A DNA stretch of 64,000 nt from an uncultured Gammaproteobacteria bacterium (GTDB taxonomy: Bacteria > Patescibacteriota > Microgenomatia > Levybacterales > GWA1-39-11): assembly GCA_964425075.1 (NCBI GenBank), contig CAYRKM010000001.1, positions 18,756 through 82,755 of the forward strand, read 5' to 3'. The notes below the pieces were generated by a model. That model had not been told where the DNA came from and ran no database searches. It saw only the letters and a list, made by a program, of their open reading frames with translations. Below, piece after piece: positions 5,146-52,214 of the stretch. The position numbers and the translations under genes were made by a program. Numbering within the stretch: the stretch's first letter is position 1; the number at the start of each line of letters is the position of its first letter.

Positions 5146-5164
5146 CACGGATGTGTTGACTGTG

Positions 5165-17006: not shown

Positions 17007-17009
17007 CAC

Positions 17010-17105
17010 GCACTCCTTTCAGGGCTTTACGAACACATGTTGCAAGTGGTAGGGTTTTTGACCCACTCAGGCCTTAACGGCCCGCTTGCCACCACTAGAT
17101 CCCAC
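17010..17105. repeat. ~90-bp intergenic repeat, copy 1 (second copy at 17439..17540; truncated third copy at 16648..16679)
   Basis: near-identical strings GCAAGTGGTAGGGTTTTTGACCCACTCAGGCCTTAACGGC(CC/TG)GCTTGCCACCACTAGA at both sites; each carries the RBS of the downstream small gene. Confidence 0.65.
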
Positions 17106-17438
17106 TTAGAACATCTCCGACTTGATCAGCACAATCCTGACGTGTTGTTCGGAGAAGCCCGGAAGGACTGCAACCACATCCTCCTTGAGTCGCCTCGCCA
17201 GATCCTCAGAACGACGGACGCCGTGGTCAACCAGAAGGCTGACGACGAAATGGATGTTTGGGTGTAACCTGTCGGATTCCCAATCGATCCTGCTGAAGAA
17301 AACTGCCACGTCCTCCGGACGAACCGGTTTTCCTCCTGCGAAAAAGTGGCCTGCCACGACGCGGCGAATTGCCTCAGCCCTCTCGCCGAAAGGAGCAAAC
17401 GACTGTGGCTTGTAATGAACCTCTACCTGAATTTTCAT
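17106..17438 (-). CDS. small hypothetical protein, paralog B (GC-rich island B)
   Basis: 110 aa from MKIQVEVHYKPQSF (internal Met of ORF 17106..17573) with GAAGGGAGTAAG RBS; same size and beta-alpha pattern as paralog A. Confidence 0.5.
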   Translation of the reverse strand: MKIQVEVHYKPQSFAPFGERAEAIRRVVAGHFFAGGKPVRPEDVAVFFSRIDWESDRLHPNIHFVVSLLVDHGVRRSEDLARRLKEDVVAVLPGFSEQHVRIVLIKSEMF

Positions 17439-17540
17439 GGATCTTACTCCCTTCAGAGTTTCACGGACACGTGTTTTGCAAGTGGTAGGGTTTTTGACCC
17501 ACTCAGGCCTTAACGGCTGGCTTGCCACCACTAGACCTGG
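17439..17540. repeat. ~90-bp intergenic repeat, copy 2
   Basis: see copy 1. Confidence 0.65.
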
Positions 17541-17706
17541 GTTTACCTTTTGCGATATCGGCAGATGTCGCAAAAGATCTTGTGGTCAAAGATGGGATGA
17601 GGAGCAGTGCCCTCACCTCCACAATTTCCACATCCAGGATCTGGTTTTGAGGTCGGGGCTCCGCGCCCCGCCTCAAGCAGTTTCACTTCGTCATCCATAA
17701 CTTCTC

Positions 17707-17964
17707 CTATTCTCTTGTGGTTAGCTCTGACCATTTCATGACCAGAACAGTCCAACCGACCATTAAGGCCAGTAAGACCCTCTCCATCATTGGATCCGTG
17801 TAGTTGATTATCGTAGCCCAGGGAAGGACTAAGAGAATCAACATGTAGAAGGCGTAGGCCATCCAGCCCCGCCAACCATACTTCCACTCTGAGGCAAGTA
17901 TGATCGTTGAAACCAGAAGGTATGCTGCCACACCTCCGGACCAATACCAGAAGGACTCCGGCAT
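17707..17964 (-). CDS. small two/three-TM membrane protein (island B)
   Basis: 85 aa from MPESFWYWSGG... with AAAGGTGA RBS; followed by GGGGCGCGGAGCCCC hairpin. Confidence 0.45.
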   Translation of the reverse strand: MPESFWYWSGGVAAYLLVSTIILASEWKYGWRGWMAYAFYMLILLVLPWATIINYTDPMMERVLLALMVGWTVLVMKWSELTTRE

Positions 17965-18170
17965 GGTTATCACCTTTCTAGAGTAAACGCGTGTGGTTTT
18001 GATCCGGCCGCAGCCGAACCTTATAGCACTTTGTAGGCGCCTTTCTGACCACACAAAAGATGATCACAAAAGCGCCCACAAAAATACACAAACAAGAATT
18101 TTCAATGAACGGGTGAAATTATACCAAAAAAAGAGTGGAATTAATGATTTGGAGTCAAACTTTCAAATAT

Positions 18171-20656: not shown

Positions 20657-21376
20657 CTAGGCCAACATTGCCTCCGGATGTCTGGCAAGCCAGACCATGA
20701 GGGTGTCGTTGGCTGTGGCCGAACGGTAGTTGATGCCGTTCAGCTCACCCGCGGCGATGCGTGAAAGAATCTCCCTCACGGGCAACCATGCAGTTCCTGT
20801 GATCCGCTCCTCCGTGTCGGTAGGAAGTCTGACTTGCGTCAGGTCCACTTCAACTTCAAAGAGCGAACTCCATGAGGCACAGAAGGTGGGATTGGGGTTG
20901 TGATGCCCCATCTCGACTATCTCGCCGATGAGTGCCTCAGGTGGAACTCCACCCTCTTCAAGCAGCTCACGAAGAGCAGCTGCGATCACGGTCTCCGCAC
21001 CGCTCTCGTTGAATGCCATAACCGCGGGCTGCCCGAATACGATCGGCGGGTCAGCAGGCTCTCCGGAAGGAAGGTCTGAAAATGGCCTCTCCTGGAAAAC
21101 CACTAACACTCGCCAGCCATCGGCAGCTTTGCCGGCGGCAACACCATTGATGTTTGCCGCCTCTCTGTACGCTCCCCGCTCGAAAGCGGGGGAACCGTCC
21201 GGGTTGGTCTGGACGCGAACGCGCATGGAACCAAACCGGGGGGATGTAATTCCCCAACCATCTGGATCTGGAACCCAAGCATTCTCACCACGAGTGGCAA
21301 GAAAGTCTGGGCAATCCACTGGGTCAATCCAACCGCGCATCGATGATCTATCCTCTCCTTGCGGCCTTACGGCCAC
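20657..21376 (-). CDS. Nudix-like hydrolase (GC-rich island C)
   Basis: 239 aa (GTG start, or internal MRGWIDP Met with GGAGAGG RBS); degenerate Nudix box ETVIAAALRELLEEGGV (Ex7REUxEExGU). Confidence 0.5.
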   Translation of the reverse strand: MAVRPQGEDRSSMRGWIDPVDCPDFLATRGENAWVPDPDGWGITSPRFGSMRVRVQTNPDGSPAFERGAYREAANINGVAAGKAADGWRVLVVFQERPFSDLPSGEPADPPIVFGQPAVMAFNESGAETVIAAALRELLEEGGVPPEALIGEIVEMGHHNPNPTFCASWSSLFEVEVDLTQVRLPTDTEERITGTAWLPVREILSRIAAGELNGINYRSATANDTLMVWLARHPEAMLA

Positions 21377-30421: not shown

Positions 30422-31609
30422 TTATTTCTTTAGAGCCTCAATACCGGGGAGTGTTCCATTTTCAATAAATTCAAGCATTGCACCTCCACCTGTTGAAATG
30501 TGGGTAATTTTCTCCAAATGGGACTTATGAGAAATTGCTGCCAATGTATCTCCCCCACCAACAATTGAAAAAACGTCAGAATTATGAGTTAGAGTATAGA
30601 ACAAAAAATCAGTACCACGAGCGTATTGAGGATTTTCTATGTACCCGACTGGCCCATTCCACACTAAAGTTTTGGCTTTCAAAATAACTCGAGCATAATC
30701 AGCTTGTGCCTCAGGTCCAATATCCAAAATCACATCATCTCTATCCACCTCAGAAATTTTCTTAACAATTCCACCCTCATCTATATCATTTTTACTTCCC
30801 ACTACTACATCTTGAGGTAAGATTATTTTTGTTTTATTTTTTTTAGCGTGCCGGACTATTTTTTTAACCTCATCCAATACCCCTTCTTCAGCCAAACTTT
30901 TTCCAATTGGATAACCCAACGCCTCAAGCATAGTATTTGCCAAGGCCCCACCAAGCACTAAAAAGTCCGCGATTTCTGTCAACTTATAAAGCAAATTAAG
31001 TTTTGTAGAAATTTTTGCTCCACCAACTATTGCCACAAATGGTTTTTTGGGGTGGTTGGTAACGTGACTTATCATCGCAATCTCGCGCTCCAATAAAAGC
31101 CCTCCGAAATGCGGCAAAAACTTGGGTAATTCTGTAATCGTCACACACTCCCTATGGCTTACTCCAAAAGCATCATTTACATAAACATCAGCCAAAACCG
31201 CAAGTTTTTCAGCCAATTCTTGCCCTGAAGCACTCTTTGGCTCATCTTCTCCTTTAAAAAAGCGGATATTTTCAAGAAATAAAATTTCTCCATTTTTTTG
31301 GTTTTCAAAATAATGCTTTGATGTATCCTGGGTAAAATTATCAACAAAACTTATTTTTACATTCGGAAGTAATTTCTGTAGTCTTTCAAAAATCGGGCGA
31401 AGAGATAATTCATTGTCATGCCCTTTTGGCCGACCGAGATGGGAAATTATAATAACTTTATTTTCTTTATAAAGTTTTTTTATGGTCGGAAGAGTCTGAC
31501 GAATTCGTTTGTCATCCGTAATTTTGTGCTTAGTTAAGGGCACATTAAAATCTACTCTAAGCAAAATTTTCTTATTTTGAATATGGGCTTTATCAATGAA
31601 AACTAACAT
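30422..31609 (-). CDS. pgk: phosphoglycerate kinase
   Basis: 395 aa; RVDFNVP N-terminal signature; GGGAMLEF C-terminal motif. Confidence 0.9.
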   Translation of the reverse strand: MLVFIDKAHIQNKKILLRVDFNVPLTKHKITDDKRIRQTLPTIKKLYKENKVIIISHLGRPKGHDNELSLRPIFERLQKLLPNVKISFVDNFTQDTSKHYFENQKNGEILFLENIRFFKGEDEPKSASGQELAEKLAVLADVYVNDAFGVSHRECVTITELPKFLPHFGGLLLEREIAMISHVTNHPKKPFVAIVGGAKISTKLNLLYKLTEIADFLVLGGALANTMLEALGYPIGKSLAEEGVLDEVKKIVRHAKKNKTKIILPQDVVVGSKNDIDEGGIVKKISEVDRDDVILDIGPEAQADYARVILKAKTLVWNGPVGYIENPQYARGTDFLFYTLTHNSDVFSIVGGGDTLAAISHKSHLEKITHISTGGGAMLEFIENGTLPGIEALKK

Positions 31610-31688: not shown

Positions 31689-33044
31689 TTAGGTCAATTT
31701 ATTTTCGCCTATATATTTCCGAATAGTGTGTGCTGTTCCTAAAAGATTTAAACTTATAAATAGCATTTCCAACTCTTCTGCTAGTTTTGCGCGAATTGGC
31801 TCTTTTTCACTTTCAGACAAAAGCCACATTTCTTTCTTGTGAGGGCCAATTGATTTTTTTCTAAGTTTGTAGACAAACTGCTCATCATTCCATCCTTCTT
31901 TTCTTTCATTTTGAAAATTTTGTTTTGTGTATTCATGAAGTTTTTCTCGCATTGCGTCAGGTATTGTGTCAAAAACAATATTTTGAAATCCTGTTGCCAA
32001 ATGGATTTCACAGGTATTATTTTGAGGAAAATCATCAAATTTATTGTCGGGTAAAGTGGAGGCGCCATGCTGAACTGCACCTGCAAGTCCATACTTTTCC
32101 CGAGCAAGTGAACCAATGTCTCTTAAAACATTAAAATCTACATTCATTTCTTGAAGCGAACCATCGGGATTTACTACTCCACCATGGGAAGTTCCTGTCT
32201 GGACACTCACTTTACTAATTCCAAGAAGGGCTTGGGGTTCAATTTTTGCCAAATATCCATCCATAAATACGGTAAAGTCCTCAACAGTTGAATTTACACC
32301 ACCAACATGTCCTATTTCTCCACCAATTGTTACCGTAATACCTCCCGGTTGCATACGGCGAATAAACTGAGTCATGAGTGCAGTCATTTCAATATTTTCT
32401 TTTTGCTGCTCCTCAACAGTTGGCTTATTAAGATCAACTAATGTCGACGCATCTATGTCAATATTATAAAAGCCTGCAGCAAGAGCATTTTTTATCTCCA
32501 ACTGTATTTCATCAATTTGTCCTTGAGGATATTCCTGATATTTTTTTACATCAAATTGGTAATGATCACCCTGGAGAAAAACAGGTCCTACAAATCCCGT
32601 TTTTATAGCTGCAGCAAGCACAACAACGGCAATCTCATCTTGAGTTTCTTTATCATATATCATCTCTGTTCTTGAAACCTCAAAAATAAAAGCACCTGCC
32701 TCCTTCTCAATCGCCTTTTTAAAAATCTCACAACAAACATCATAAGTAATTGCGCGCAAGTTAATTGCAGGAACTGTAAAACCGGACACCTCGCCTTTTC
32801 CAAAAGCCTCATAAAGCGAATAAATTGAGGCTGGTTCTATCCCAAATTCTTTAGCTAATTTGCGGATAAAAACCCTGGCTAAATGACGAGTAGTAGCGTC
32901 TTCAGAAAGTACGGCAGTATAAACAAGATGGTCAATTCCTTCATTCCGAAGTTTTGCCTCATCCTTTAACTGAATTTCTTTATCGTGAAGTATTGCGATA
33001 TCATGCAAATTATTCTCGAGTTCTTGAGTTGAGTTAAAAATCAT
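31689..33044 (-). CDS. class II (metal-dependent) fructose/tagatose-bisphosphate aldolase family, long form
   Basis: 451 aa; LQGDH, GGEIGHVGG, TGTSHGG and VQHGAS segments align to class II Fba catalytic elements. Confidence 0.7.
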   Translation of the reverse strand: MIFNSTQELENNLHDIAILHDKEIQLKDEAKLRNEGIDHLVYTAVLSEDATTRHLARVFIRKLAKEFGIEPASIYSLYEAFGKGEVSGFTVPAINLRAITYDVCCEIFKKAIEKEAGAFIFEVSRTEMIYDKETQDEIAVVVLAAAIKTGFVGPVFLQGDHYQFDVKKYQEYPQGQIDEIQLEIKNALAAGFYNIDIDASTLVDLNKPTVEEQQKENIEMTALMTQFIRRMQPGGITVTIGGEIGHVGGVNSTVEDFTVFMDGYLAKIEPQALLGISKVSVQTGTSHGGVVNPDGSLQEMNVDFNVLRDIGSLAREKYGLAGAVQHGASTLPDNKFDDFPQNNTCEIHLATGFQNIVFDTIPDAMREKLHEYTKQNFQNERKEGWNDEQFVYKLRKKSIGPHKKEMWLLSESEKEPIRAKLAEELEMLFISLNLLGTAHTIRKYIGENKLT

Positions 33045-33271
33045 AAGTTGATGATAAATGCTTGATGGTAGATGGAAAATGAAATTGAAGTAAAACTCAT
33101 ATTAACCATTTATCATTTGCCATTCATCATTATATTTAGTGTACGGGAGATAAGAAATCTCAGTCAAGTAGAACAAACGGTATCTGTGCATTGCGAAGAA
33201 TTTAATGGTTGGTGGGAGACGAGCGCGCGTGCGCATCGCCCCCCACCGGTAGTCGCAGAGTTGATAGGTGC

Positions 33272-33436
33272 TCACCTCGGATGACCCCTCCAGTGGTCGG
33301 GAGGCCTCGGCCGTCCAGCTTGCTCTTGTGCCCATTGCTCGTCGGCAATCCGTCGGTCTCGCCGCCAGGCAAAACCTAGCACGACATACACAATCAGACC
33401 GCCAAGGACGAATCCGAGAACAAACGCTCCAAGCAT
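33272..33436 (-). CDS. small single-TM peptide (54 aa), island D
   Basis: MLGAFVLGFVLGGLIVYVVLGFAWRRDRR...; preceded by CCGGCGCAAGCCGG palindrome plus AGGAAGGGAG RBS; not in ORF track (<60 aa). Confidence 0.4.
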   Translation of the reverse strand: MLGAFVLGFVLGGLIVYVVLGFAWRRDRRIADEQWAQEQAGRPRPPDHWRGHPR

Positions 33437-33469
33437 GTCTGTCTCCCTTCCTCCGGCTTGCGCCGGAAG

Positions 33470-33613
33470 CTAGTCTCTTCGATTGTTGGGTGGACGGCCG
33501 TAACCGTGCGTTGGTTGTTCTCCGGCAAGGATGATCCTGCCGAGTTTGGCCGTCAGCAGGAGACCTCCTGCCAAAACGACCACGATAACCACAACCCACA
33601 CGGGTAGCGACAC
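33470..33613 (-). CDS. small single-TM peptide (47 aa, GTG start), island D
   Basis: VSLPVWVVVIVVVLAGGLLLTAKLGRIILAGEQPTHGYGRPPNNRRD; preceded by CCGGCGCGAGCCGG palindrome plus GGAAGGAGG RBS. Confidence 0.4.
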   Translation of the reverse strand: MSLPVWVVVIVVVLAGGLLLTAKLGRIILAGEQPTHGYGRPPNNRRD

Positions 33614-33647
33614 AATCTGCCTCCTTCCACCGGCTCGCGCCGGGGCG

Positions 33648-33959
33648 CTAACGATGGCCTAGATTGTAGACCACCTCCCTATGGAAATTCCTGAACTCCC
33701 ACGACCTTGCTGATGCATTGTGGACGTCCTCATCTTGACTTGGAATCGTCGATAAGATCGTCCTCAGTTGACTAGCATACTCACGGATTTCACCGATTTG
33801 TGCGGGTTTTACCCCACGAAAACCATGCCGCAGCATGATTTCATAGCTCACGATTCTGGTGATTTTTCCCCTGAGTACTCCCATCAGGACAAGCCTCTCG
33901 TCAAGGCTCATTCTCTGAACCCGTTGTCTGAAGTTCGAGTTACCTCGTCGAGTAGTCAT
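33648..33959 (-). CDS. hypothetical small protein, possible DNA-binding (island D)
   Basis: 103 aa from MTTRRGNSNFRQRV (internal Met where GC-rich sequence begins); GGAAGGGG RBS; upstream perfect palindrome GTGCC-GCGAG-GGCAC. Confidence 0.4.
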   Translation of the reverse strand: MTTRRGNSNFRQRVQRMSLDERLVLMGVLRGKITRIVSYEIMLRHGFRGVKPAQIGEIREYASQLRTILSTIPSQDEDVHNASARSWEFRNFHREVVYNLGHR

Positions 33960-34357
33960 GACTGCCCCTTCCGTTAGATGCTTGAGTTTCACTCTGCGTT
34001 GTAAATGTGCAATGTGCCCTCGCGGCACAAGCAAATTACACCGCAGAACACAATTGGGGAAATTATATACTTTTGAAGTCATATTTACCACAAAGTGATA
34101 ATTATCAATTAAGAATGAAGAATTAATTTTTTTTGCATTTGAAACGAAGAGTGTGTTATGTATTTTCGTCATTTTGTACCGAACATATGAACCGGTAAAC
34201 GAATATGAGTGGTCCGAAGGAAAAAGCTGTAAAGGCTGAGCTTGCGAACTGCCGGAGCTTTTAATGAATGAGTGAAACCGGCGAATACGTGAGGGGCAAT
34301 TGACGAGAGGCTTTGCTACTTTCGCCGGAGCGAAAGTAGAAGAAAGAGGGAATAACT

Positions 34358-39710: not shown

Positions 39711-39781
39711 ATTTGAATTTAAATGAAGCCTCAGTGATTGTATAAAGCAAGTTTTAAAAAAACAAGTGGAAAAAGCATTAT

Positions 39782-39817
39782 GCGCCGGGAATCCGCCAAA
39801 TGGCGGAAACCCGGCGC
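39782..39817 (-). terminator. compound hairpin GCGCCGGG-AATCCGCCAAATGGCGGAAA-CCCGGCGC followed (minus strand) by T-rich tract
   Basis: nested perfect inverted repeats 30 nt after stop of island E operon. Confidence 0.5.
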
Positions 39818-39846
39818 TATCGCACCTCCTCGTCGGAAAGGACCAC

Positions 39847-40215
39847 TTACAGGCTTCGCCGTGTGCTCAGCACCCGACCACCAGCAACTACGCCAACGGC
39901 GAGCACAACTAGCACCGCGGCAACCGCCAGGCTGCCAGACTGGTCGATGAGACCAGACGAGCCACCATTGGCTGGTGTCTGAGGCGTCGCGGCTGAAACC
40001 ATCTCCCGACTGCCTTTCAGCAGCCCGGCATTACCCACTTTGGGTGGAGTAATCTTTACCGTCTCTTGCGGTCGTCTCTCGAAAGAGATACTAACCGCCT
40101 GGGGCAACTTATCAGCCTGCTCCTGTTCGTTTTGGGCTCGGACGAAAACACCGAGAACCAACACGAGGGACACCACCATTACAGCGGCTACCATTTCCTT
40201 CTTTCTTGAACGCAT
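39847..40215 (-). CDS. secreted protein with N-terminal signal/TM and C-terminal hydrophobic anchor plus basic tail (island E)
   Basis: 122 aa; GAGGAG RBS; ...SGSLAVAAVLVVLAVGVVAGGRVLSTRRSL C-terminus. Confidence 0.5.
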   Translation of the reverse strand: MRSRKKEMVAAVMVVSLVLVLGVFVRAQNEQEQADKLPQAVSISFERRPQETVKITPPKVGNAGLLKGSREMVSAATPQTPANGGSSGLIDQSGSLAVAAVLVVLAVGVVAGGRVLSTRRSL

Positions 40216-40227
40216 CCCAGACTCCTC

Positions 40228-40401
40228 TCAGAAAATCTTCCTGATGGCAAGACTTATGCTTACCAAAAGGAAGATGGCAAACCCGAGCGGCGGGATAGCC
40301 GGGGAGATAGCGCTCTCGCCAATCCCACTAGAACTGTTTGATAGTGACCACACAAGAGTGGCCACCATGGCCGTCACCGAGACGGCCAACAGTCGAGCCA
40401 T
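40228..40401 (-). CDS. small two-TM membrane protein (57 aa), island E
   Basis: AAAGGAGGTGAA RBS then ATG; MARLLAVSVTAMVATLVWSL...FAIFLLVSISLAIRKIF. Confidence 0.4.
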   Translation of the reverse strand: MARLLAVSVTAMVATLVWSLSNSSSGIGESAISPAIPPLGFAIFLLVSISLAIRKIF

Positions 40402-40457
40402 TTCACCTCCTTTCGGAAAGTAGTGTTACGGCAAGACCGATCGAGCATCCAGTTCTG

Positions 40458-40838
40458 TCACAGCAGTGGTGGTGGTTTCCGTCGAGACTTTCGTCTCGAA
40501 AGAAATGTGGCTACCAGAGCAACCACAACGCCCACTTCGAACAGTATCAGGATGAGCAAAGCCGATACTGGTGGATCTGGTGCATATGTTGAGGCGCGAT
40601 CGTTGAACCACTCGAAGATGAGGATGGCTCCTAACACAAGTAGCACTATCATGGGGGTGGTATAGCGCCCACGATGTGATGCATCTTGTTTCTTGGCTTG
40701 CTGGACATCGTCTGGTTTCCTGACTTGCTGGTAATCCCACCAACTTCTCAGTCCTTCGTCGGGATTGCTCCCGTATCCAGACGTGTGAGCGGCCTCCAGA
40801 ACCTCTGGTGGCCACGTTTCCTTTTCTACGCGAGACAC
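40458..40838 (-). CDS. membrane protein (126 aa, GTG start), island E
   Basis: AGGAGGAAAA-GTG start (VSRVEKETWPP...); two C-terminal TM helices and RRKSRRK tail; longer ORF-track call 40458..40937 lacks an RBS. Confidence 0.45.
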   Translation of the reverse strand: MSRVEKETWPPEVLEAAHTSGYGSNPDEGLRSWWDYQQVRKPDDVQQAKKQDASHRGRYTTPMIVLLVLGAILIFEWFNDRASTYAPDPPVSALLILILFEVGVVVALVATFLSRRKSRRKPPPLL

Positions 40839-40863
40839 TTTTCCTCCTAGGAATTTCGTCCGT

Positions 40864-41079
40864 TTAGTGCGGCCAGCCTGGCCTTGATCCTCTCTGCTCT
40901 CGCAGGAAGGCTTCCACTTCATCCCCCAACCCAACATCGAAGTCGGGCGGAAGGGGCTCGAGCGGTGGGAGTTTTGGCTGAAACAAGATCCGGTGAACCA
41001 TCACCGGACCTATCAACATTACTCCCACAACGATTGCATCGAACACAGTTTGCCGAATCCTTCGTACTAGTCGAGACAC
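40864..41079 (-). CDS. small membrane protein (71 aa, GTG start), island E
   Basis: AGGAGGAACGACA-GTG (VSRLVRRIRQTVFDAIVVGVMLIGPVMV...); upstream perfect palindrome CTGCGGAC-AA-GTCCGCAG. Confidence 0.4.
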   Translation of the reverse strand: MSRLVRRIRQTVFDAIVVGVMLIGPVMVHRILFQPKLPPLEPLPPDFDVGLGDEVEAFLREQRGSRPGWPH

Positions 41080-41297
41080 TGTCGTTCCTCCTGTCCTTTC
41101 CTTCAATTGTTCGTGTGCGATAACTGCGGACAAGTCCGCAGAGAATTTTCAGATCCCCCAACAAGGCAGCTTTTGCCAAGTTCGGTTATCCAATGATGGA
41201 ATAATACCAAAAAATAGCAACAGAAACAAACTATGGGTTAAAAATTTGTGCTTTTTTACTCTTTGTTTTTTTTATTTGAAACAATATGGTATAGTAG

Positions 41298-44397: not shown

Positions 44398-44751
44398 CTA
44401 ATTTTGAGGCAAACCAAGGTGTTTTTCTACTTTCTTAAGTCTTCTGTGCAATACTGCATCCCCTTCGTCATAATTCTTGGCAATTATGCTCGTCGTTTTC
44501 TCAATTTTATTTACTTTATTTCTAACATCTTTAACGTCCTTACCTGTTTTTTTTACATTTTCTACAACATTATCCATCCGAATCTCAACATTTTTCATTC
44601 TATCGTCAAGCTCGCTTAAATCATTGCTTAATGAGATTTTTGTAAGGCGGATTTGGTCCTCTAAATTTCTAGCAGAATCTCTTACTTCTACTTTAACTTC
44701 TTCCTGAACCACCTTTCTTATCGCTTTTAAATCATCTAATGTAAGTGCCAT
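44398..44751 (-). CDS. coiled-coil hypothetical protein
   Basis: 117 aa from MALTLDDLKAIRK (internal Met of ORF 44398..44925); heptad-like charged repeats. Confidence 0.4.
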   Translation of the reverse strand: MALTLDDLKAIRKVVQEEVKVEVRDSARNLEDQIRLTKISLSNDLSELDDRMKNVEIRMDNVVENVKKTGKDVKDVRNKVNKIEKTTSIIAKNYDEGDAVLHRRLKKVEKHLGLPQN

Positions 44752-44866
44752 AGGATTTATTATTATTGAAAACTTCAGGGGAAATTTCAAGAGAGCAAAC
44801 AATATCAGCGAAGCATGGTATCGAATGGTACCTGACAGGCACTGAGCAACTATGTTTTGGGACTCA

Positions 44867-45472
44867 CTATTTCGGTAATTTGTCCCAAGGGCCAGGATAG
44901 TCTGGAGGATAAGTTCCCATAACAATATCTGTTGGTATGTCCTCTTTATTTATTAATATTTTATTAAAATCATATATCTTAAAATCCCTTTTGCTATCAA
45001 ATATTGCAATCGCAAACCTACTAGGACGTACAAAAAATGTATAATTTTTTGTTTTTGTATCAAATATGTAATTTACTTTTGCGTACTGAGTCATCTCTCT
45101 ATAGTTGGCAGGATCCATTTCTTCTAAGTCTTTGAGTTGTTGTGGGATATTCTTGTTTTCTTTTATCCTTTGTTTAATTTGTGCATGAATAGCGTGAGCA
45201 GGAATGATACCTCGATAAAAAGTACTCATGCTGCAACTAGTTGTTCCAACGATAAAGAAAAAGATTATATAAAAAAGATAGATTACTGCAAATACGGCAG
45301 GTGAGGCAATAAGCATAGTTATAAGCAGGCGCTTCTCTTTTATTCTCTTAATTTGAAAAATGATTATGAGAATAAAGATTAGTATCGGGAAGAATATAAA
45401 TACTCCCAAAACATTTAAATCATTAAGGCAAATATCTAGCACCGACTGTCTTGAAAATGGCATATCATACAT
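44867..45472 (-). CDS. membrane protein, hypothetical
   Basis: 201 aa, two N-terminal TM helices. Confidence 0.45.
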   Translation of the reverse strand: MYDMPFSRQSVLDICLNDLNVLGVFIFFPILIFILIIIFQIKRIKEKRLLITMLIASPAVFAVIYLFYIIFFFIVGTTSCSMSTFYRGIIPAHAIHAQIKQRIKENKNIPQQLKDLEEMDPANYREMTQYAKVNYIFDTKTKNYTFFVRPSRFAIAIFDSKRDFKIYDFNKILINKEDIPTDIVMGTYPPDYPGPWDKLPK

Positions 45473-45563
45473 AGCGAATTATTATAACAAATGATTTAAT
45501 TTCATTTGGGGTGGCTTAGTAAGCTTTGTTTTGGCCTAAATTTACTAAAGGATTAAGATTTTT

Positions 45564-46187
45564 CTATTTTAATATTTCTAGCGTTGAAAGAGTTTTATCT
45601 ACTTCTGTTTGAAACCCAACATTCTGAGGATCATTAACTGATGTCGCGATAACAATCGCATAATTTGATTTCATATCTTTTTGAAGCACATAATAGGTAG
45701 ATTGACCCAAACTACGAATCTTGTAAGTAACACCCGAATAATTATTGAGCATAATATTTTTTGGGGGGGCAATGATTTCTGAAGTTCCATCTGCGGTCAT
45801 CTGCTTAAGATACTCGTCCAACCATTTCTGAAATGTCTTTCCGTTTAAGGAAATTGTTTCAAAAACCATAATTACACCGTCATATATTTCGGTTTGTCCT
45901 TTTTGGGTTGCACCTGTTTTATAAATACGAATATGTTGTTTGTCTTTTGTGTCTAATTTATAATCTGCAGGATAAAGGAAAACATACACTCCTTGAGGAT
46001 CACTATAGCTACTTCCTCCGGCTCTTAAATCACTATTATCAATAGTCGGTTGTGGAGTATTCTCGGCTACCGAGGGAGAAGGAGTATTGTTGGGGTCTAT
46101 AAAGGAATTTTTTATTTTAGGAAAGAAATAAAAAATTCCCAACATAATTATTGCTATCACAATAAACCCTAATTTTGTTATTTTCAT
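45564..46187 (-). CDS. secreted/anchored hypothetical protein
   Basis: 207 aa, N-terminal TM/signal. Confidence 0.5.
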   Translation of the reverse strand: MKITKLGFIVIAIIMLGIFYFFPKIKNSFIDPNNTPSPSVAENTPQPTIDNSDLRAGGSSYSDPQGVYVFLYPADYKLDTKDKQHIRIYKTGATQKGQTEIYDGVIMVFETISLNGKTFQKWLDEYLKQMTADGTSEIIAPPKNIMLNNYSGVTYKIRSLGQSTYYVLQKDMKSNYAIVIATSVNDPQNVGFQTEVDKTLSTLEILK

Positions 46188-46245
46188 AAAGAAAGGATTG
46201 GTATTACCTATAAGTATAAAGGTTTTGTTTTGATGCTGAAAGTTT

Positions 46246-46286
46246 TGGCAGGGCCGGATGGAATCGAACCATCTTCAAAGGTTTTG
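46246..46286 (-). tRNA. 3' exon (positions 35-76, CCA encoded) of a split tRNA-Trp(CCA) gene
   Basis: CAAA-ACCTT-TGAA-GATGG-TTCGATT-CCATC-CGGCCCT-G-CCA; acceptor strand complementary to AGGGCCG in the 5' exon 166 nt upstream. Confidence 0.45.
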
Positions 46287-46302
46287 TCCCAGAAGTATCT
46301 TG

Positions 46303-46373
46303 CAGGGGTATCAGGGCTCGAACCTGAAATGGAGGTTTTGGAGACCTCTGTGATACCATTTCACCATACCCCT
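46303..46373 (-). tRNA. tRNA-Trp (anticodon CCA), intact copy embedded between the two exons of the split copy
   Basis: AGGGGTA-TG-GTGA-AATGGTA-TCAC-A-GAGGT-CTCCAAA-ACCTC-CATT-TCAGG-TTCGAGC-CCTGA-TACCCCT-G. Confidence 0.8.
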
Positions 46374-46452
46374 AAAAATAATGCCTGCTTAGAACTTCGG
46401 GATCCCGTACATCTAAGCAAAACCCTTCAGGTTTTGCAAGATGGTACTGGGA

Positions 46453-46485
46453 GAGACCTCTATTCTACCGGTAAACTACGGCCCT
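46453..46485 (-). tRNA. 5' exon (positions 1-34) of split tRNA-Trp(CCA)
   Basis: AGGGCCG-TA-GTTT-ACCGGTA-GAAT-A-GAGGT-CTC; joined to the 3' exon it reconstitutes anticodon loop CUCCAAA identical to the intact copy. Confidence 0.45.
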
Positions 46486-46546
46486 TTGTGTTATTATCAA
46501 GCTCAATTATATTTCAAAGGGGGATTTAATTCAATTTAAAGGCAAT

Positions 46547-47227
46547 CTAAGTACCCGATGCCGTCATTCTCACATTCATTTCCTTTAATGTATTATCAAA
46601 TGTATCTTTTACTATTTCTTCTGGCAGGTTGGAATTATTGATATTAATCTGTGCGAAAAAATCGTACACTGCCTGAAAATTAAAAGGCCCCATTAATTTT
46701 CTATGTGGAATTACAAGGTCAACCGAAACATACCCGTTTGATTGTGGAGATAAATTAACATAAATACCTTTTCTTGATTGCCTCAATGAAATAGCGCTGG
46801 AGCCAATTTTTTCGATGCTAATTGGCTTTTTCGCCCATTCTTCTTCTGAAAAGAATTCTTTAACCCCAACAATTAATCCATCTACATTTTGATCTGTAAT
46901 AATTTTGGCTGTTATATCTCCATCATTATCGCTGGTCACCCTAAAAACCTCACCACCATTTCTATCCACTACAAAAGTCGTAAAAGTATCACTATCATCA
47001 AAAATTTCCTGTATTTTCAAATCAGAAATTGTCGAACCATCAGGCACAATTCGCTGATCAACACCATTATTTACCAAACTTTCAGAGATTGGAGTTATAT
47101 TATTAGGAGAATTGTTTGGGTCAAAATCGGTATTGATACCTGATATTTTTCTACCTGAATCTGGAAATCTAATAATATTATCTGGTTGAGCTTCATCAGT
47201 CATTTCAAAATCAGTATACCATAGCAT
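46547..47227 (-). CDS. hypothetical protein
   Basis: 226-aa ORF. Confidence 0.5.
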   Translation of the reverse strand: MLWYTDFEMTDEAQPDNIIRFPDSGRKISGINTDFDPNNSPNNITPISESLVNNGVDQRIVPDGSTISDLKIQEIFDDSDTFTTFVVDRNGGEVFRVTSDNDGDITAKIITDQNVDGLIVGVKEFFSEEEWAKKPISIEKIGSSAISLRQSRKGIYVNLSPQSNGYVSVDLVIPHRKLMGPFNFQAVYDFFAQININNSNLPEEIVKDTFDNTLKEMNVRMTASGT

Positions 47228-47254
47228 AAAATTAAGGACATGATATATGAAATC

Positions 47255-47899
47255 CTAATCCTTAATTTCAAACTCTTCGATGATATTTGAGATTGTTCCA
47301 TGCTCACCTAAGTTGGCGACTATAAGTTTGGTAACCTGAAAATCTATAGTTTCAGTTTCGCCTAATGTTTTCATCGCCCCATTCCTATCTTTCTCGTTTT
47401 TAAGCCTTGTTAGAGTAACATGCGGAACGTAAAGCTCACCATGATAAATTGCTCCCGTCTTCAATACGTTTCGTCGTTCTTTTTCACCTAATTCTTCAAG
47501 TTGTTCTAATGCGGGGGGTGCGATAAGTCCTTCGCGAAGTGGATTTGCCAGTTTTAGAATTTGTCGGTGAAACTCCATAATTTCCTTTGATTTTTTTGCG
47601 TTCCACCAAACAAATCTTCCGGGGCTTATCCAAAAATCTGACATAAAAACGGAAAATTTTTTGCTTTCTTTGGAAAATTTTAGAAGAGTCTTTTTTAAAG
47701 AATCAAGATTTTTATATGGAAAATATCCTTGATAAATAGTTATGTGCGGTCTGAAATTTTTAGTATTAAGCGTAAATTCTGATGCAAATTTCTTAGTCAG
47801 ATTTTCACTTTGCTTAATCGCCTCTTTCTTTACATCGACTGAGGGCAAAATCACAATATTTAAAGCAATTGCTCTATTCTTGTCATTACTTGAAATCAT
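47255..47899 (-). CDS. 2H phosphoesterase superfamily protein (LigT-like 2'-5' RNA ligase/cyclic phosphodiesterase)
   Basis: 214 aa; two HxT/Sx motifs (HITIYQG and HVTLTRL). Confidence 0.65.
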   Translation of the reverse strand: MISSNDKNRAIALNIVILPSVDVKKEAIKQSENLTKKFASEFTLNTKNFRPHITIYQGYFPYKNLDSLKKTLLKFSKESKKFSVFMSDFWISPGRFVWWNAKKSKEIMEFHRQILKLANPLREGLIAPPALEQLEELGEKERRNVLKTGAIYHGELYVPHVTLTRLKNEKDRNGAMKTLGETETIDFQVTKLIVANLGEHGTISNIIEEFEIKD

Positions 47900-47946
47900 A
47901 AATACATTTTACCAAACTTACAAATATTGCTCATTGGGCTCTTTTT

Positions 47947-48648
47947 TTGCTAACATGGTATTTCATGATACAAAAAGCAACAGAGCATTTGAAAAGAAAT
48001 GTCACACCAACTTTCTCAAAAAATTTTAGAATTTCATTCCTGCTTCTTTCAATTCTTTTTTTATTTCTTTTTCTTTTATTTACTTTTATAGTAAGAAGTG
48101 ACGCTTTGCGTGTTTTTGATTTTGATACAACAGTAAGACTTCAGGCTCGAATTCCAATAAGAATTGACCCATTTTTCTCCTGGCTTTCGGTTTTTGGGCG
48201 CTTTGAAACGACCTTCGTAATTCTTCTTATTATTTTATTTATCAAAAGAAAGCTTTTGGGAATTGTTGCTTTCTCTTTGTTTGGTTTTGCACACATCATT
48301 GAAATAATTGGCAAGACAATTCTTTCCCAACCCGGACCTCCGCATATGTTTTTAAGAACCCATGAATTGGCTCAAGAATTCCCAGGGCTTTATATTCACA
48401 CAAATGCTTCATATCCATCGGGACACGCCATGCGAACAATTTTTCTATTCATTATTATTGGTTTACTCATATTTAGAAGTAAAAAGATATCCACAGTAAT
48501 AAAACTTTTTGCGTATGGAATTCTTCTTTCTATAGTTCTTCTAATGCTAGTATCCCGTGTTAGTCTTGGCGAGCACTGGACGACTGATGTCATCGGTGGA
48601 GCTCTCCTTGGAGCCTCTTTTGCACTTCTATCCCTTTTGTTTTTGTGA
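47947..48648 (+). CDS. PAP2-family membrane phosphatase
   Basis: 233 aa; KxxxxxxRP-like, PSGH (YPSGHAMR) and SRxxxxxHxxxD (SRVSLGEHWTTDV) motifs. Confidence 0.75.
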   Translation: MLTWYFMIQKATEHLKRNVTPTFSKNFRISFLLLSILFLFLFLLFTFIVRSDALRVFDFDTTVRLQARIPIRIDPFFSWLSVFGRFETTFVILLIILFIKRKLLGIVAFSLFGFAHIIEIIGKTILSQPGPPHMFLRTHELAQEFPGLYIHTNASYPSGHAMRTIFLFIIIGLLIFRSKKISTVIKLFAYGILLSIVLLMLVSRVSLGEHWTTDVIGGALLGASFALLSLLFL

Positions 48649-48684
48649 GCTTGAAAATTACAAAGGGCCCACTATAATTGAACA

Positions 48685-49449
48685 ATGTCAAAAGAAGAGC
48701 TCCCTACAGAACCGGGCATTCACTCAAATCCAATAGATATAGACGGGAATATCGCTCTAAGTGTTTGTCGGACTATGATTGTTGGTGCAAAACCTGCATC
48801 TCAGGAATATGTAGAAGCTGGTTGTTATTTCATGAAAGAAATCCAACCCAATCTCTACGAATTTGCAAAGGAGATGTTTGCCTTAAGAAGCACTATTGGA
48901 AGCGGTTCTGAGCCACAGGAAGATAACCGCTTTGGCTCCACTACAAAACCGCTTGACTCACATGAGGCAAGCTTTATGGATTCATATATGATAGGTGCAC
49001 TTTTGATGTTTCTTATTCTCCAAGATCAATATGAACTTGGAGGAAATCTTTTCCCTAAAATTTCAAAGAATAACACTGCTAATTATTTTGATAACCTTAT
49101 AGATGTTGAGTTAAACCATAGCGAGATTGCAGAAATAAAAGGCTTGAGAATCCCGGAAGACAAAAGCCTTTCGCCCGGAAGGCTTAATTATGCAATAAGG
49201 AATGACACAGTAACTTCAAGCACTCTTCAAAGAGTTACAAAAACATTTGTAGATAATTCGGATTCTACAGTCAGTGAATTTTGGGATACTCAATCATCCT
49301 TTCAGGAGGCCTTAAGACAAAGTGGGTTTTTCAGAAATTTCGGAAGTATTAAGGGAATTGTGTACGGTGCCTGTGATGTATTTAGATGTTTTGAATTAGT
49401 TGAAGAAAACGAAGCTCTTGATAGATGGTATGGGATTGAAACTAAATAG
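48685..49449 (+). CDS. hypothetical protein
   Basis: 254-aa ORF. Confidence 0.5.
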   Translation: MSKEELPTEPGIHSNPIDIDGNIALSVCRTMIVGAKPASQEYVEAGCYFMKEIQPNLYEFAKEMFALRSTIGSGSEPQEDNRFGSTTKPLDSHEASFMDSYMIGALLMFLILQDQYELGGNLFPKISKNNTANYFDNLIDVELNHSEIAEIKGLRIPEDKSLSPGRLNYAIRNDTVTSSTLQRVTKTFVDNSDSTVSEFWDTQSSFQEALRQSGFFRNFGSIKGIVYGACDVFRCFELVEENEALDRWYGIETK

Positions 49450-49450
49450 C

Positions 49451-49485
49451 TTTACTTTAATTTTTCTCGTTCTTTGTGAGGTTGA
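49451..49485. repeat. 35-bp direct repeat copy 1 (duplicate of rpmG 3' end), left boundary of island F segment
   Basis: TTTACTTTAATTTTTCTCGTTCTTTGTGAGGTTGA identical to 51210..51244; both followed by T8-9. Confidence 0.7.
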
Positions 49486-49756
49486 TTTTTTTACACTTCT
49501 ATTACTTCTTTTCCTCTAAGATTCAGCTTCTCTTGCTTTAATTTAACCTAAATTTATAACTTCGTCAGAAATTTGTCATGAAAAATTGACTGTAAGTGGT
49601 AAAATTGTTGAATTGAAAATCCAATTTGGGTTATATCAATAAGCTCTTTAATAATTGGGTGGATTTTTAGTGCTTGAAAGGGTTCTCCCGATCTTAAGAT
49701 ATATTGTCTTCGGATCGGGGGAACTCCCCAAGGGATCACAGAAAGGATCAACAACC

Positions 49757-50896
49757 ATGCCGAGTTTGCGCGGCCAAGAGGTTACCATTTCCGTCATTAA
49801 GGCGGATGTTGGCAGCATCGGAGGCCACACGCGCCCAAGCCCAACCATGATCAGACACGCGGAAAGAGCCATCGAAGGCGCAATCCGCGAAGGACTCATC
49901 GTGGACGGCTTCGCCACCTTCATCGGTGACGACACTGCCCTGAACATGCTTCACACTCGTGGAGAAAACTCGCAGGACGTACATCTCTTCGCATCAACGA
50001 CGTTCTTCGAGATGACCGGGATCGCGGAGAGAGAAGGTCTCTATGGCGCAGGCCAAGACCTCCTTGAGAGTGCTCCCAGCGGCAACGTCCGCGGAGCGGG
50101 ACCTGGTGCTGCCGAGATCGAATTCGTTCTCTTGCCTGACCGACGTTCGGCGGAGAGCATGATGATCTTCTCTGCAGACAAGTGCGGACCGGGAATGTTC
50201 AATCCCTACATCCGCGACGTCCTCACCAGCCCTGACGTCAACGGAGGGCTTCTTATTGCCTCTCCGCAGCGAGCAGGCTTCACGGTGAAGATCATCGACA
50301 TGAGTCCAGGGGCAAAGCAGGCCATCACGCTCACTCTGCCTGAAGACCGAGATGCGATGGCTGCTCTTCTGAGGACGCCAGACGTCTTCGCTGTCAAAAG
50401 CGTCTATTCGGGTCAGCATCCCGAAGAAAAGCTGATGGACTGCACGACCGACAGGCTTCACAGCTTCGGACCGACCGTGTACAAGGGCAAAGATGACCCT
50501 GTGCTCATTGTCCGAAATCAGGGGCTGTCCCTGGCACCGGAGGAGATCCTTCGACCGTGGACAAATCCGCGCAGAACCACAGGCGGCGCCCGTGGGAGCT
50601 CGGTGCAATACCCCTTCCCGAGCGCCATCAACACCCCGGTGACAGGAGCTTACTGCCAGACGCTAGTCGCCTGCATCGGCTTCTCGGTCAGCGAGGAGGG
50701 CAAGTTCTCGGAACGGGTCGACTTCTTTGCTTGGCCCGTCTGGGACTGGACACGTCAGCAGGTCTCCAAGCTTGCTAACCAGCTCTACCGCGAGGGGTTC
50801 AACGAAATGGCAATCGCCTCGAGTGGCGAACTCGCCTACACAGGCCTTCGTGACCTGGACGAGGCACTTTTGGCCCGTTTCGAGCCCATCGACTAG
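49757..50896 (+). CDS. fbp: bifunctional fructose-1,6-bisphosphate aldolase/phosphatase (class V FBPase, archaeal type), island F
   Basis: 380 aa from MPSLRGQEVTISVIKADVGSIGGHTRPS; ISVIKADxGS, GDDTALNMLHTRGE and GLYGAGQDLLESAPSGNVRGAGPGAAEIEF blocks match the FBP aldolase/phosphatase family; ~60% GC. Confidence 0.8.
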   Translation: MPSLRGQEVTISVIKADVGSIGGHTRPSPTMIRHAERAIEGAIREGLIVDGFATFIGDDTALNMLHTRGENSQDVHLFASTTFFEMTGIAEREGLYGAGQDLLESAPSGNVRGAGPGAAEIEFVLLPDRRSAESMMIFSADKCGPGMFNPYIRDVLTSPDVNGGLLIASPQRAGFTVKIIDMSPGAKQAITLTLPEDRDAMAALLRTPDVFAVKSVYSGQHPEEKLMDCTTDRLHSFGPTVYKGKDDPVLIVRNQGLSLAPEEILRPWTNPRRTTGGARGSSVQYPFPSAINTPVTGAYCQTLVACIGFSVSEEGKFSERVDFFAWPVWDWTRQQVSKLANQLYREGFNEMAIASSGELAYTGLRDLDEALLARFEPID

Positions 50897-51209
50897 TCCG
50901 GGGTAACCGGAGATCCACCCATCCCGAGAGAAGAGTCCCTGCCAGTACTACATAGACTGCAGACTGACCTCAGGAGAATGCATTCCTGAACGTCTTTTTG
51001 CAGCAAAATGTAATGCTTACTCTTCTCTCTCACCCTTTGCAAATGAAGCTCCACGAGTTAACACTCATGGTATCTTCTTTTCCTCGCTTGCGCCTTAGAG
51101 GGTATTAAGCTCGGAAAATAAAAAGGTTTGTTTTCAAAGGATGAGAATAATATGAATTTTTTGACGGAATTATCTAAAAAAATGGGGATTGAAGGAGGAT
51201 TAAAGTTAA

Positions 51210-51244
51210 TTTACTTTAATTTTTCTCGTTCTTTGTGAGGTTGA
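51210..51244. repeat. 35-bp direct repeat copy 2 = last 34 nt plus stop of rpmG
   Basis: see copy 1. Confidence 0.7.
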
Positions 51245-51390
51245 ATTTTTTTGCAATTCTTGCAGTACTTTTTAAGATTGAGTTTTTCAGGCGTGTTTAG
51301 CTTGTTGCGCTCACTAATATAGTTAACGCTTTTACAAACGGTGCATTGTAGCCCCAAAATAAATCGTACGTCTCCTTTTTTCTTTGCCAT
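51211..51390 (-). CDS. rpmG: 50S ribosomal protein L33
   Basis: 59 aa (below ORF-track cutoff): MAKKKGDVRFILGLQCTVCKSVNYISERNKLNTPEKLNLKKYCKNCKKIQPHKEREKLK; CxxC...CxxC zinc-ribbon L33. Confidence 0.85.
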   Translation of the reverse strand: MAKKKGDVRFILGLQCTVCKSVNYISERNKLNTPEKLNLKKYCKNCKKIQPHKEREKLK

Positions 51391-51637: not shown

Positions 51638-51709
51638 GCCTCGGTGGCTCAGTGGCAGAGCACGTTCTTGGTAAGAACGGGGTCGTGGGTTCGATTCCCA
51701 CTCGAGGCT
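51638..51709 (+). tRNA. tRNA-Thr (anticodon GGT)
   Basis: GCCTCGG-TG-GCTC-AGTGGCA-GAGC-A-CGTTC-TTGGTAA-GAACG-GGGTC-GTGGG-TTCGATT-CCCAC-TCGAGGC-T. Confidence 0.85.
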
Positions 51710-51882
51710 CAAGGCAAATTTGCCTCACTGCTTTTCATTTCAGCCTATTTTTTGTACAATATCAGGACGTATTTTGCCGAGATGGAGACATGACTATGCA
51801 GACCGAAGGTCACAGCGGTCATCGAAGCGAAGCTTAAATACGAACAACAAAAAATTGAGGTTAAACTTGAAGTGATATTAAT

Positions 51883-51967
51883 GCCGAGATGGCGGAGCGG
51901 TCAATCGCAACAGACTGTAAATCTGTCGCCCGTACGGGCTACATAGGTTCAAATCCTATTCTCGGCA
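51883..51967 (+). tRNA. tRNA-Tyr (anticodon GTA) with long variable arm
   Basis: acceptor GCCGAGA/TCTCGGC, anticodon arm ACAGA-CTGTAAA-TCTGT, variable stem GCCCG-TA-CGGGC, T-arm ATAGG-TTCAAAT-CCTAT. Confidence 0.85.
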
Positions 51968-51997
51968 CAAAAATTGCGTAGAAATTTTTGTGAAGAG

Positions 51998-52214
51998 AAC
52001 AAGGTTTTCTTATTCTCGGCACAAAATTGTAGATTTTGGGTTGAGAACAAGGTTTTCTTATTCTTGGCACAAACGAAGCGTAGTGTCCGAGAGCAAGGTT
52101 TTCTTATTCTCGGCACAAAATTGTAGATTTTGGGTTGAGAACAAGGTTTTCTTATTCTTGGCACAAACGAAGCGTAGTGTCCGAGAGCAAGGTTTTCTTA
52201 TTCTCGGCACAAAT
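51998..52214 (+). repeat. tandem array (5 copies) of a 28-nt unit AACAAGGTTTTCTTATTCT(C/T)GGCACAAA derived from the tRNA-Tyr 3' end, with alternating 20-nt spacers
   Basis: copies at 51998, 52046, 52094, 52140, 52188; spacers alternate ATTGTAGATTTTGGGTTGAG and CGAAGCGTAGTGTCCGAGAG (a 96-bp unit repeated ~2.3 times); the unit's last ~17 nt equal the tRNA-Tyr 3' end. Confidence 0.7.

Follow-up and report, generated by a model that had tools for sequence, protein, structure and literature searches.

A predicted fructose-1,6-bisphosphate (FBP) aldolase/phosphatase gene of an uncultured Levyibacteriota bacterium is packaged with its own expression signals; on one side of it lies rpmG, a ribosomal protein gene, and on the other a decayed copy of the rpmG 3' end. 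We describe this arrangement in a stretch of 64,000 nucleotides (contig CAYRKM010000001.1 of assembly GCA_964425075.1, positions 18,756 to 82,755), here called the window, whose numbering is used throughout. We observed the anatomy of this insert, empty layouts of the locus in other species, the same cassette elsewhere in the phylum, recurrent rpmG fossils in relatives, and swapping of gene modules between close relatives. The account that we favour, tentatively and at slightly below an even chance, is that the cassette is an old resident of a variable locus that was re-inserted by recombination within the last ~35-43 bases of rpmG.

The borders of the insert are formed by the following features:

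49451-49485, no strand assigned: repeat copy 1, an exact 35-mer that is the terminal block of the rpmG fossil.
49451-49553, minus strand: pseudo-rpmG 3' fragment of ~100 nt, from an rpmG DNA profile (nhmmer) and alignments.
51210-51244, no strand assigned: repeat copy 2, the same 35-mer within functional rpmG.
51211-51390, minus strand: rpmG (ribosomal protein L33, 59 amino acids), the conserved right anchor of the locus (Pfam Ribosomal_L33, E 1.9e-15).

The preliminary description of this DNA had reported an exact 35-mer with a following T run at both positions, the second copy at the end of rpmG, and alignment bore this out: the two copies of TTTACTTTAATTTTTCTCGTTCTTTGTGAGGTTGA are identical, 1,724 nt lie between them, and each continues into a T run with a 1-nt indel. 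Copy 2 comprises the final 34 nt of rpmG, stop codon included, and the base that follows. Far from being a common motif, the 35-mer has only these two copies in the window: no third was found with up to three mismatches allowed, and 100 shuffles gave 0 matches. The left flanks of the copies share only a 9-nt match, which 321 of 500 shuffles equalled, and we rejected this match as a sign of a larger duplicated unit. A dif-like (Xer) site was likewise set aside, since the 35-mer, judged by eye only, lacks dyad symmetry.

The exact sequence was recovered in two independent short-read assemblies (Logan, SRR14271365 and SRR14271372), whose contigs end within the repeat (L001 corresponding to 44538-49480, L002 to 49456-51244 and L003 to 49456-51239), as expected at k = 31 for a 35-mer present twice. 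We defined the integrated left junction as ORF254-35mer-TTTTTTTACAC, the integrated right junction as AAAGTTAA-35mer-AATTTTTTTGC, the empty-site junction as ORF254-35mer-AATTTTTTTGCAATTC (also given with AATTTTTTTGC) and the circle junction as AAAGTTAA-35mer-TTTTTTTACACTTC (also given with TTTTTTTACAC), ORF254 being the open reading frame (ORF) to the left of copy 1. Contigs that break in the repeat leave the order of the pieces unproven, which would suit an assembly artefact in which the island, really an independent small circle or a piece of some other organism's DNA, was threaded into the chromosome through the shared 35-mer. We give this hardly any credence: the AT-rich ends of the island are Levyibacteriota-specific (the rpmG fossil and a cassette promoter common to relatives), the same gene lies beside rpmG or PAP2 in many independent assemblies, the NCBI record is one 835-kb contig, and a 1.76-kb circle with a single metabolic gene would have no replication function.

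Copy 1 is the well-kept tip of a ~100-nt decayed rpmG pseudo-3'-end. In the rpmG sense it extends 5'-ward as degenerate rpmG-like sequence to ~49553, and a DNA profile built from rpmG of 11 related species, with the window's own rpmG left out, matches it at 49453-49509 with an envelope reaching 49553. The last 35 nt are identical to functional rpmG and are followed by a 1-nt deletion and a shared 7-nt A run; the next ~55 nt, the 5' half of the fossil, are 68% identical to functional rpmG and contain an in-frame stop and two indels, a 4-nt insertion among them. The two parts also differ in the alleles that they preserve, the identical 35 nt carrying the lineage-specific synonymous states of the functional gene and the 5' part retaining the ancestral GAGAAGCT found in relatives where functional rpmG has GAAAAACT. 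By our own calculation, 35 unchanged sites at 32% divergence have a probability of ~1e-6; 35 identical nucleotides beside a part diverged by 32% thus indicate that the terminal block recombined recently and is younger than the rest of the fossil. The 5' half is 75-78% identical to rpmG of species in which the cassette lies next to rpmG.

Fossils of this kind recur. Partial copies of the rpmG 3' end, on the same strand and downstream of rpmG, are present in at least 10 other loci fetched from relatives (designated by L numbers), even where there is no cargo, and in many the gap between gene and fossil is 15-100 nt. Fossils of ~42 nt lie past a conserved 15-45-nt spacer, itself a degenerate continuation of rpmG, in L004, L020, L021, L023/L060, L024, L028, L045/49/65 and L047, and fossils of ~94 nt occur in L028 and L030. 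The ~42-nt terminal unit corresponds to profile positions 138-179 in six loci of the first scan and was found in five metagenome loci as well; this end is kept while the 5' halves of the fossils decay. Between species, no other part of rpmG is as well conserved as this end: the window and L045, for example, are identical over 32 nt.

Relatives' fossils differ from the functional rpmG end by 17-26%; of these differences 52 are synonymous and 12 non-synonymous, where 18% synonymous would be expected at random. In most species the ~42-nt copies still encode KKIQPHKEREKLK* (in L004, spacer and copy together span 13439-13526), and in four of the seven genomes compared only synonymous differences separate copy and gene end. 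Over 72 nt, the L028 fossil and the L004 gene end do not differ at all, although elsewhere these loci are 64-87% identical. The excess of synonymous differences fits former functional alleles and suggests that both tails were once part of working rpmG genes. Translation of the downstream fossils by readthrough or frameshifting was rejected, as their frame relative to rpmG varies between species. In L030, three tandem 34-nt units (GCAAGCTTGAAGTCTTCGTTTCACTCGACTATAA) at 12864-12970 separate rpmG from the 94-nt fossil, with the junction microhomology ATAAGC.

Because such fossils recur in relatives, duplication of the rpmG end is by itself no proof of integrase action. The preliminary description had read the bracketing repeat as the attL/attR signature of site-specific integration. 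Part of that reading holds, as the repeat resides in the 3' end of an intact rpmG and empty layouts exist (below); a clean att core gave way to a decayed ~100-nt fragment, no recombinase was found among the 40 largest ORFs of the window, and the cargo is not foreign to the lineage. In its classical form, site-specific integration would make the 35-mer the att core of an element, either decayed or mobilised in trans, that a tyrosine or serine recombinase from elsewhere in the genome had moved and that could still leave as a 1,759-bp circle. An attP/attB history would leave a perfect core next to a gene-like arm long since decayed, the fossils of other species retain the same terminal ~42 nt as a unit, and the short-read graph is compatible, if ambiguously, with a mixture of integrated, empty and circular forms. 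Against this, the FBP aldolase/phosphatase gene is the sole long ORF between the repeat copies, in line with the earlier statement that the segment holds no integrase, and none was found among the 40 largest ORFs of the window either; no intact integrase-bearing element occurs at rpmG in any of ~45 related loci; relatives hold the same cassette without repeats; fossil lengths vary (~42, 94 and 100 nt); and the 17-26% divergence of the terminal-block copies in other species argues against active homogenisation there. We therefore regard site-specific integration as unlikely, though still a serious contender.

Two known systems lend it precedent. In E. coli, insertion of e14 or phage 21 in icd leaves icd together with icdC, a pseudo-3'-end of the same kind (PMC13626634). 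There, as in the window, an insert in the 3' end of a housekeeping gene supplies a replacement end and so leaves the gene intact, the displaced tail persists as a far-side pseudogene, and the two tails differ mostly at synonymous sites. However, the e14 prophage is 15 kb long, encodes an integrase of its own and excises on SOS induction, whereas the window insert measures 1.7 kb and has one metabolic gene, no recombinase and phylum-native cargo. In Streptococcus, the 3' end of rpmG is on record as a target of ICEs (integrative and conjugative elements) and IMEs (integrative and mobilizable elements) with tyrosine integrases, so that target gene and end are the same (PMC4701971). Unlike the insert, these elements bring along tyrosine integrases together with modules for conjugation or mobilisation, nothing of which was found in the window, and they belong to an unrelated phylum. 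What sets the window apart from e14 and the ICEs is a tiny integrase-less insert with phylum-native cargo, in a slot where modules for a single metabolic step are exchanged.

The insert itself, 49486-51209, is a self-contained expression cassette with promoter, leader hairpin, ORF and 3' stem element:

49554-49679, plus strand: cassette upstream region with a conserved GTCAGAAATTTGTCA motif, a promoter-like site (49578-49605) and a conserved ATTGGGTGGATTTTT, from alignment with relatives.
49680-49726, plus strand: 5' leader hairpin of 21 bp just before the ribosome-binding site (RNAalifold).
49757-50896, plus strand: predicted FBP aldolase/phosphatase gene, 379 amino acids from this ATG, GC 0.59, GC at third codon positions (GC3) 0.69 (PF01950).
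50926-51029, plus strand: 3' element, an invariant stem GAGAGAAGAG...CTCTTCTCTC around ~85 nt with an inner hairpin (fold z = -5.23).
51046-51209, no strand assigned: AT-rich spacer of 164 nt from cassette to rpmG, with no similarity found.

The claim that the 1.72 kb between the repeats carries a GC-rich gene of this family survived a profile search: the product matches PF01950 (FBPase_3) over its full length (positions 2-361 of 361; E 1.3e-96; 324.4 bits against a curated cut-off of 25). The NCBIfam equivalog NF041126 scores 293.5 bits, below its cut-off of 520, as does the related enzyme of L026 (359 bits), and by these matches the window protein is a divergent member of the FBP aldolase/phosphatase family (PF01950, class V FBPase). 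A phmmer comparison with the Thermoproteus enzyme (PDB 3T2B, chain A) gave E 5e-52, with identity at what we take to be the metal ligands (Asp11, His18, Asp52, Asp53, Gln95, Asp132, Asp233 and Asp234) and catalytic residues (the Schiff-base Lys232, Tyr229 and the C-terminal Tyr348), as well as at Lys133. A native class II aldolase had been placed at 31689-33044; this minus-strand gene, which adjoins pgk (30422-31609, minus), encodes a 450-amino-acid protein with no more than a weak class II aldolase match (TIGR00167, E 2e-13, far under the cut-off) and is at most a candidate FBP aldolase.

GC content is 0.56-0.64 over ~49700-51000 and 0.29-0.42 in the flanks, and the GC3 of the cassette gene compares with ~0.3 in neighbouring genes. 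The region 49554-49679 aligns with the entire PAP2-to-cassette intergenic region of L004, L014, L016 and L026. Ten of the 21 pairs of the leader hairpin show compensatory changes across five cassettes, and its single-sequence fold, like that of the 3' element, is far more stable than the folds of shuffles (z = -3.96). Within the leader region (49655-49756), besides this hairpin, an upstream GGATTTTT is able to pair with the ribosome-binding site. The window has a single 3' element, and none of the loci with a cassette of the type found in the Candidate Phyla Radiation (CPR) lacks one. Leader and 3' element accompany every CPR copy of the gene (window, L004, L014, L016, L026 and L069), and neither has an Rfam match even at E up to 1; we treat both as candidate cis-regulatory RNAs. 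Neither ORF254, nor its homologues, nor any fetched locus resembles the spacer beside rpmG.

A single ORF followed by an imperfect inverted-repeat element, the lack of a recombinase of its own and an array-like variable slot all recall integron cassettes. Unlike those, the window cassette has its own promoter, and its 3' element is invariant and exclusive to this gene; no IntI or attI was found in the window. The 3' element was rejected as a general cassette site, being restricted to the FBP aldolase/phosphatase gene and absent from alternative modules in the same slot.

The nearest proteins to the window enzyme fall into four clusters at 62-67% identity, all others reaching at most 49%. Three of these clusters were traced to contigs (P0004 was left out), and all three come from Levyibacteriota loci with the same PAP2-rpmG neighbourhood. 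A more distant cassette (44% identical to the window protein) occupies the PAP2-rpmG interval of L026; its enzyme shares 57-61% identity with proteins from outside Levyibacteriota and less, 44-49%, with the Levyibacteriota group, while its PAP2 is as related as any. The L069 cassette, in a different gene context, has both leader and 3' element and is 61% identical to that of L026, the sole comparison made. No flanking repeats surround the cassettes of L004, L014, L016, L017 or L026.

The preliminary description had called the enzyme archaeal-type and the bracketed DNA foreign in composition. The first label fits the enzyme family and not the donor. The deviant composition was borne out, but the cargo is not foreign to the lineage, as the same cassette and its shared non-coding elements reside in at least four other Levyibacteriota species. 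Recent import from outside the phylum, by direct delivery from an archaeon or a GC-rich bacterium, would account for the GC3 contrast with the neighbouring genes; the family is typical of archaea and deep-branching bacteria, the PDB matches are archaeal, and a homologue with 54-58% identity is found in a 69% GC genome (L070). However, that homologue lacks the promoter, leader hairpin and 3' element common to the CPR cassettes, which points to a CPR-resident cassette and no fresh import. The relatives' cassette genes are themselves GC-rich (GC 0.57-0.63, GC3 0.69-0.79, against GC3 0.27-0.35 in other genes of those genomes), and third-position identity among CPR copies is near saturation (0.42-0.55) while GC3 is still ~0.7-0.8, which indicates that the GC-rich state is old within the group. 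Together with the confinement of the traced 62-67% proteins to Levyibacteriota loci, this makes recent import very improbable.

Nor did carriage on mobile elements find support. Neither the cassette protein nor the rpmG C-terminal pattern was present in IMG/VR viral contigs, tblastn gave no match to the cassette in PLSDB or INPHARED, and phage or plasmid carriage was rejected on these grounds. Exact look-ups of the cassette ORF and of rpmG returned nothing outside the source samples, and we found no literature linking FBP aldolase/phosphatase to Patescibacteria.

The surroundings of the cassette are conserved on either side:

47947-48648, plus strand: PAP2-family phosphatase gene, the conserved left anchor (Pfam PAP2, E 1.8e-16).
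48685-49449, plus strand: ORF254 ('O'), with its own promoter directly past the PAP2 stop.
51638-51968, plus strand: tRNA-Thr(GGT) and tRNA-Tyr(GTA), the conserved right flank (ARAGORN, Rfam).

By a scan with its PAP2 protein, the window belongs to Candidatus Levyibacteriota. Orthologues of PAP2 (56-65% amino acid identity) anchor the same interval in at least 14 Levyibacteriota loci, and rpmG is 74-83% identical at the protein level to the orthologues that border the PAP2-rpmG interval in relatives. ORF254 is preceded by a promoter-like TTGAAA-16-TATAAT (48651-48678) and has no Pfam or NCBIfam match; distant homologues (21-29% amino acid identity) adjoin rpmG in L004, L014, L025, L026, L028-L030 and L051. 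Between the anchors, the interval is hypervariable across Levyibacteriota, with states that include the cassette alone and the cassette with ORF254 (>< marks genes that face each other):

L019: empty.
L020, L021, L024, L045, L047: short rpmG fossil.
L025, L051: ORF254 alone.
L016/L059: PAP2 - cassette >< rpmG.
L014: PAP2 - cassette - ORF254-like.
L004/L018: PAP2 - cassette - ORF254-like - (ORF369) - rpmG.
L028, L029: GlpX-like FBPase, GC-rich class I FBP aldolase and ORF254.
L023, L030, L031, L052: unrelated ORFs.

Replacement of one module by another is most evident between L014 and L029, whose PAP2 proteins are 92% identical: L014 has the cassette, L029 has the GlpX-like FBPase and class I aldolase, and homology between the loci ends exactly at the PAP2 stop and restarts 38 nt before ORF254. 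The alternative module (L028 5655-7853; L029 10684-12923) pairs a GlpX-like class II FBPase (E 6e-22) with a class I FBP aldolase of GC 0.61 (NF006704, 454 bits where the cut-off is 277), a case of non-orthologous replacement in which metabolic step and locus stay the same. These alternative modules, and the affinity of the L026 enzyme to proteins from outside the group, indicate that the slot exchanges modules for one metabolic step. The conserved PAP2 and rpmG/tRNA anchors, variable content and clean breakpoints resemble integration hot spots exchanged through flanking homology; those, however, arise by plain double crossover without duplication, whereas the window bears a one-sided scar, the rpmG fossil. 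Both L018 and L028 belong to one metagenome-assembled genome, JAYRRJ01 (XM1_ASGE3bin.27), which thus holds two versions of the PAP2-rpmG locus in one bin and probably mixes two related populations.

Among the loci compared, the window alone has the order PAP2 - ORF254 - cassette - rpmG and alone has a fossil between ORF254 and cassette. A search for an uninterrupted site, as the preliminary description had proposed, succeeded in other species (PAP2 58-63% identical at the protein level): ORF254 >< rpmG in L025 and L051, and PAP2 >< rpmG in L019. A gap of 2 nt separates the stop codon of the fossil (49452-49454, minus strand) from that of ORF254, a junction that mirrors the adjacent ORF254 and rpmG stops of L025 and resembles those of L026 and L051.

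A local rearrangement could have produced the same order. It would start from PAP2 - cassette - ORF254 >< rpmG, duplicate the block of cassette, ORF254 and last 100 nt of rpmG in tandem, lose the first cassette and the second ORF254, and convert the last 35 nt; in a variant, a tandem rpmG fossil such as those of L028 and L030 pre-existed and the cassette landed between fossil and rpmG. In all three related species with both, the cassette does precede ORF254 (L004, with the extra ORF369, L014 and L026); tandem rpmG tail duplicates with junction microhomology (ATAAGCT) are common in the phylum, the three 34-nt units of L030 among them; and the fossil abuts the full cassette upstream region, as a duplication junction just past PAP2 would. 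Yet at least four events are needed. No trace of ORF254 was detected at 51030-51215 by blastn-short, tblastn or profile search of six-frame translations, though decay could erase it; the interval from PAP2 to ORF254 holds only the 36-nt ORF254 promoter and no cassette remnant; and the identical 35 nt would require an extra conversion on very short homology. On balance a local rearrangement strikes us as unlikely, on a par with site-specific integration.

We prefer one-sided recombination in the terminal block of rpmG, which would have inserted a cassette-bearing segment and duplicated the rpmG tail, and for which we would put the chances just short of even. The cassette would long have circulated within Levyibacteriota, normally directly after PAP2, while the ancestral layout in the window lineage would have been PAP2 - ORF254 >< rpmG. 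An incoming segment of cassette plus a 3' piece of rpmG, either an excised circle or DNA from another Levyibacteriota cell, may then have crossed over with resident rpmG inside its conserved last ~35-43 nt, by a Campbell-type single crossover or by homology-facilitated illegitimate recombination, using host recombination functions and no element-encoded integrase. The outcome would be an intact rpmG, the cassette, and a stranded rpmG tail of ~100 nt beside ORF254. We infer the direction of the event, the single crossover and the absence of a dedicated recombinase from the pattern as a whole: a single crossover in the terminal block explains the mosaic fossil in one event, this block can act as a homology anchor because it is the most conserved part of rpmG, and the fossil abuts the complete cassette upstream region, with a breakpoint at most ~25 nt from where the PAP2 stop of relatives sits.

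During natural transformation, homology-facilitated illegitimate recombination combines one homologous anchor with one illegitimate joint and can add foreign DNA beside a conserved gene. The proposed event would share these features. It differs in that this process usually deletes recipient DNA instead of duplicating a part of the anchor, and the process is not known from CPR bacteria.

Several points weigh against insertion by one-sided recombination. No donor or circular form was seen, and ORF254 had no homologue besides itself in a word-indexed search of 5.8 billion proteins. Since no close relative is sampled, the insertion is neither dated nor polarised. The 5' half of the fossil is just marginally nearer to cassette-adjacent rpmG than to its own (68%), and no source for the 164-nt spacer next to rpmG was found among the fetched loci. 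An identity of 35-43 nt is near the lower limit for RecA-dependent recombination, and inspection for a recombinase covered 64 kb of the 835-kb genome.

A bolder proposal is that the rpmG terminus and the PAP2-rpmG slot form a dedicated integrase-less exchange platform, on which ready-to-express modules for the FBP step are swapped between lineages and the last ~42 nt of rpmG serve as the site for a trans-acting recombinase. We think this decidedly unlikely; were it true, the persistence of high GC in the modules would be a sign of a separate reservoir or of selection acting on the cassette itself.

Outside the locus, four further stretches of the window are GC-rich (0.52-0.54 GC: 5042-5609, 16500-18083, 33131-34047 and 39724-41140). 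None has a frame with a coding GC pattern, a Pfam match, an Rfam match (E up to 1) or a homologue in the related loci fetched, and we regard them as candidate large structured RNAs. The first folds well on the minus strand (z = -4.46), and 16500-18083 comprises three tandem units of ~430 nt. A second compositionally deviant coding gene, 20657-21376 (minus strand, GC 0.56), encodes a protein of 239 amino acids whose NUDIX domain scores E 4e-6; no repeats were found on its flanks. At 51995-52213, just past tRNA-Tyr, lie five copies of a 31-nt hairpin-forming unit (GAGAACAAGGTTTTCTTATTCTCGGCACAAA) at 46-48-nt spacing, arranged as a 94-nt tandem repeat. GC skew is negative nearly throughout 1-64000, adding up to -11.8 over the 64 kb, and the minus strand carries most genes; a strong asymmetry between the strands has likewise been described for another Microgenomates genome (PMC7143001).

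Central carbon metabolism in CPR bacteria is patchy, and the gain or swap of such genes is poorly documented (PMC7304191). At the PAP2-rpmG locus, closely related species fill one slot with alternative solutions to a single metabolic step, and the scar of recombination is kept in one genome; read-level data can put the route of exchange to the test. That the GC3 of the gene stays at ~0.7 in AT-rich genomes runs counter to the common practice of reading composition as a clock for recent transfer. Finally, we put the conserved leader and 3' element forward as candidate new cis-regulatory RNAs by which CPR bacteria may control gluconeogenesis.

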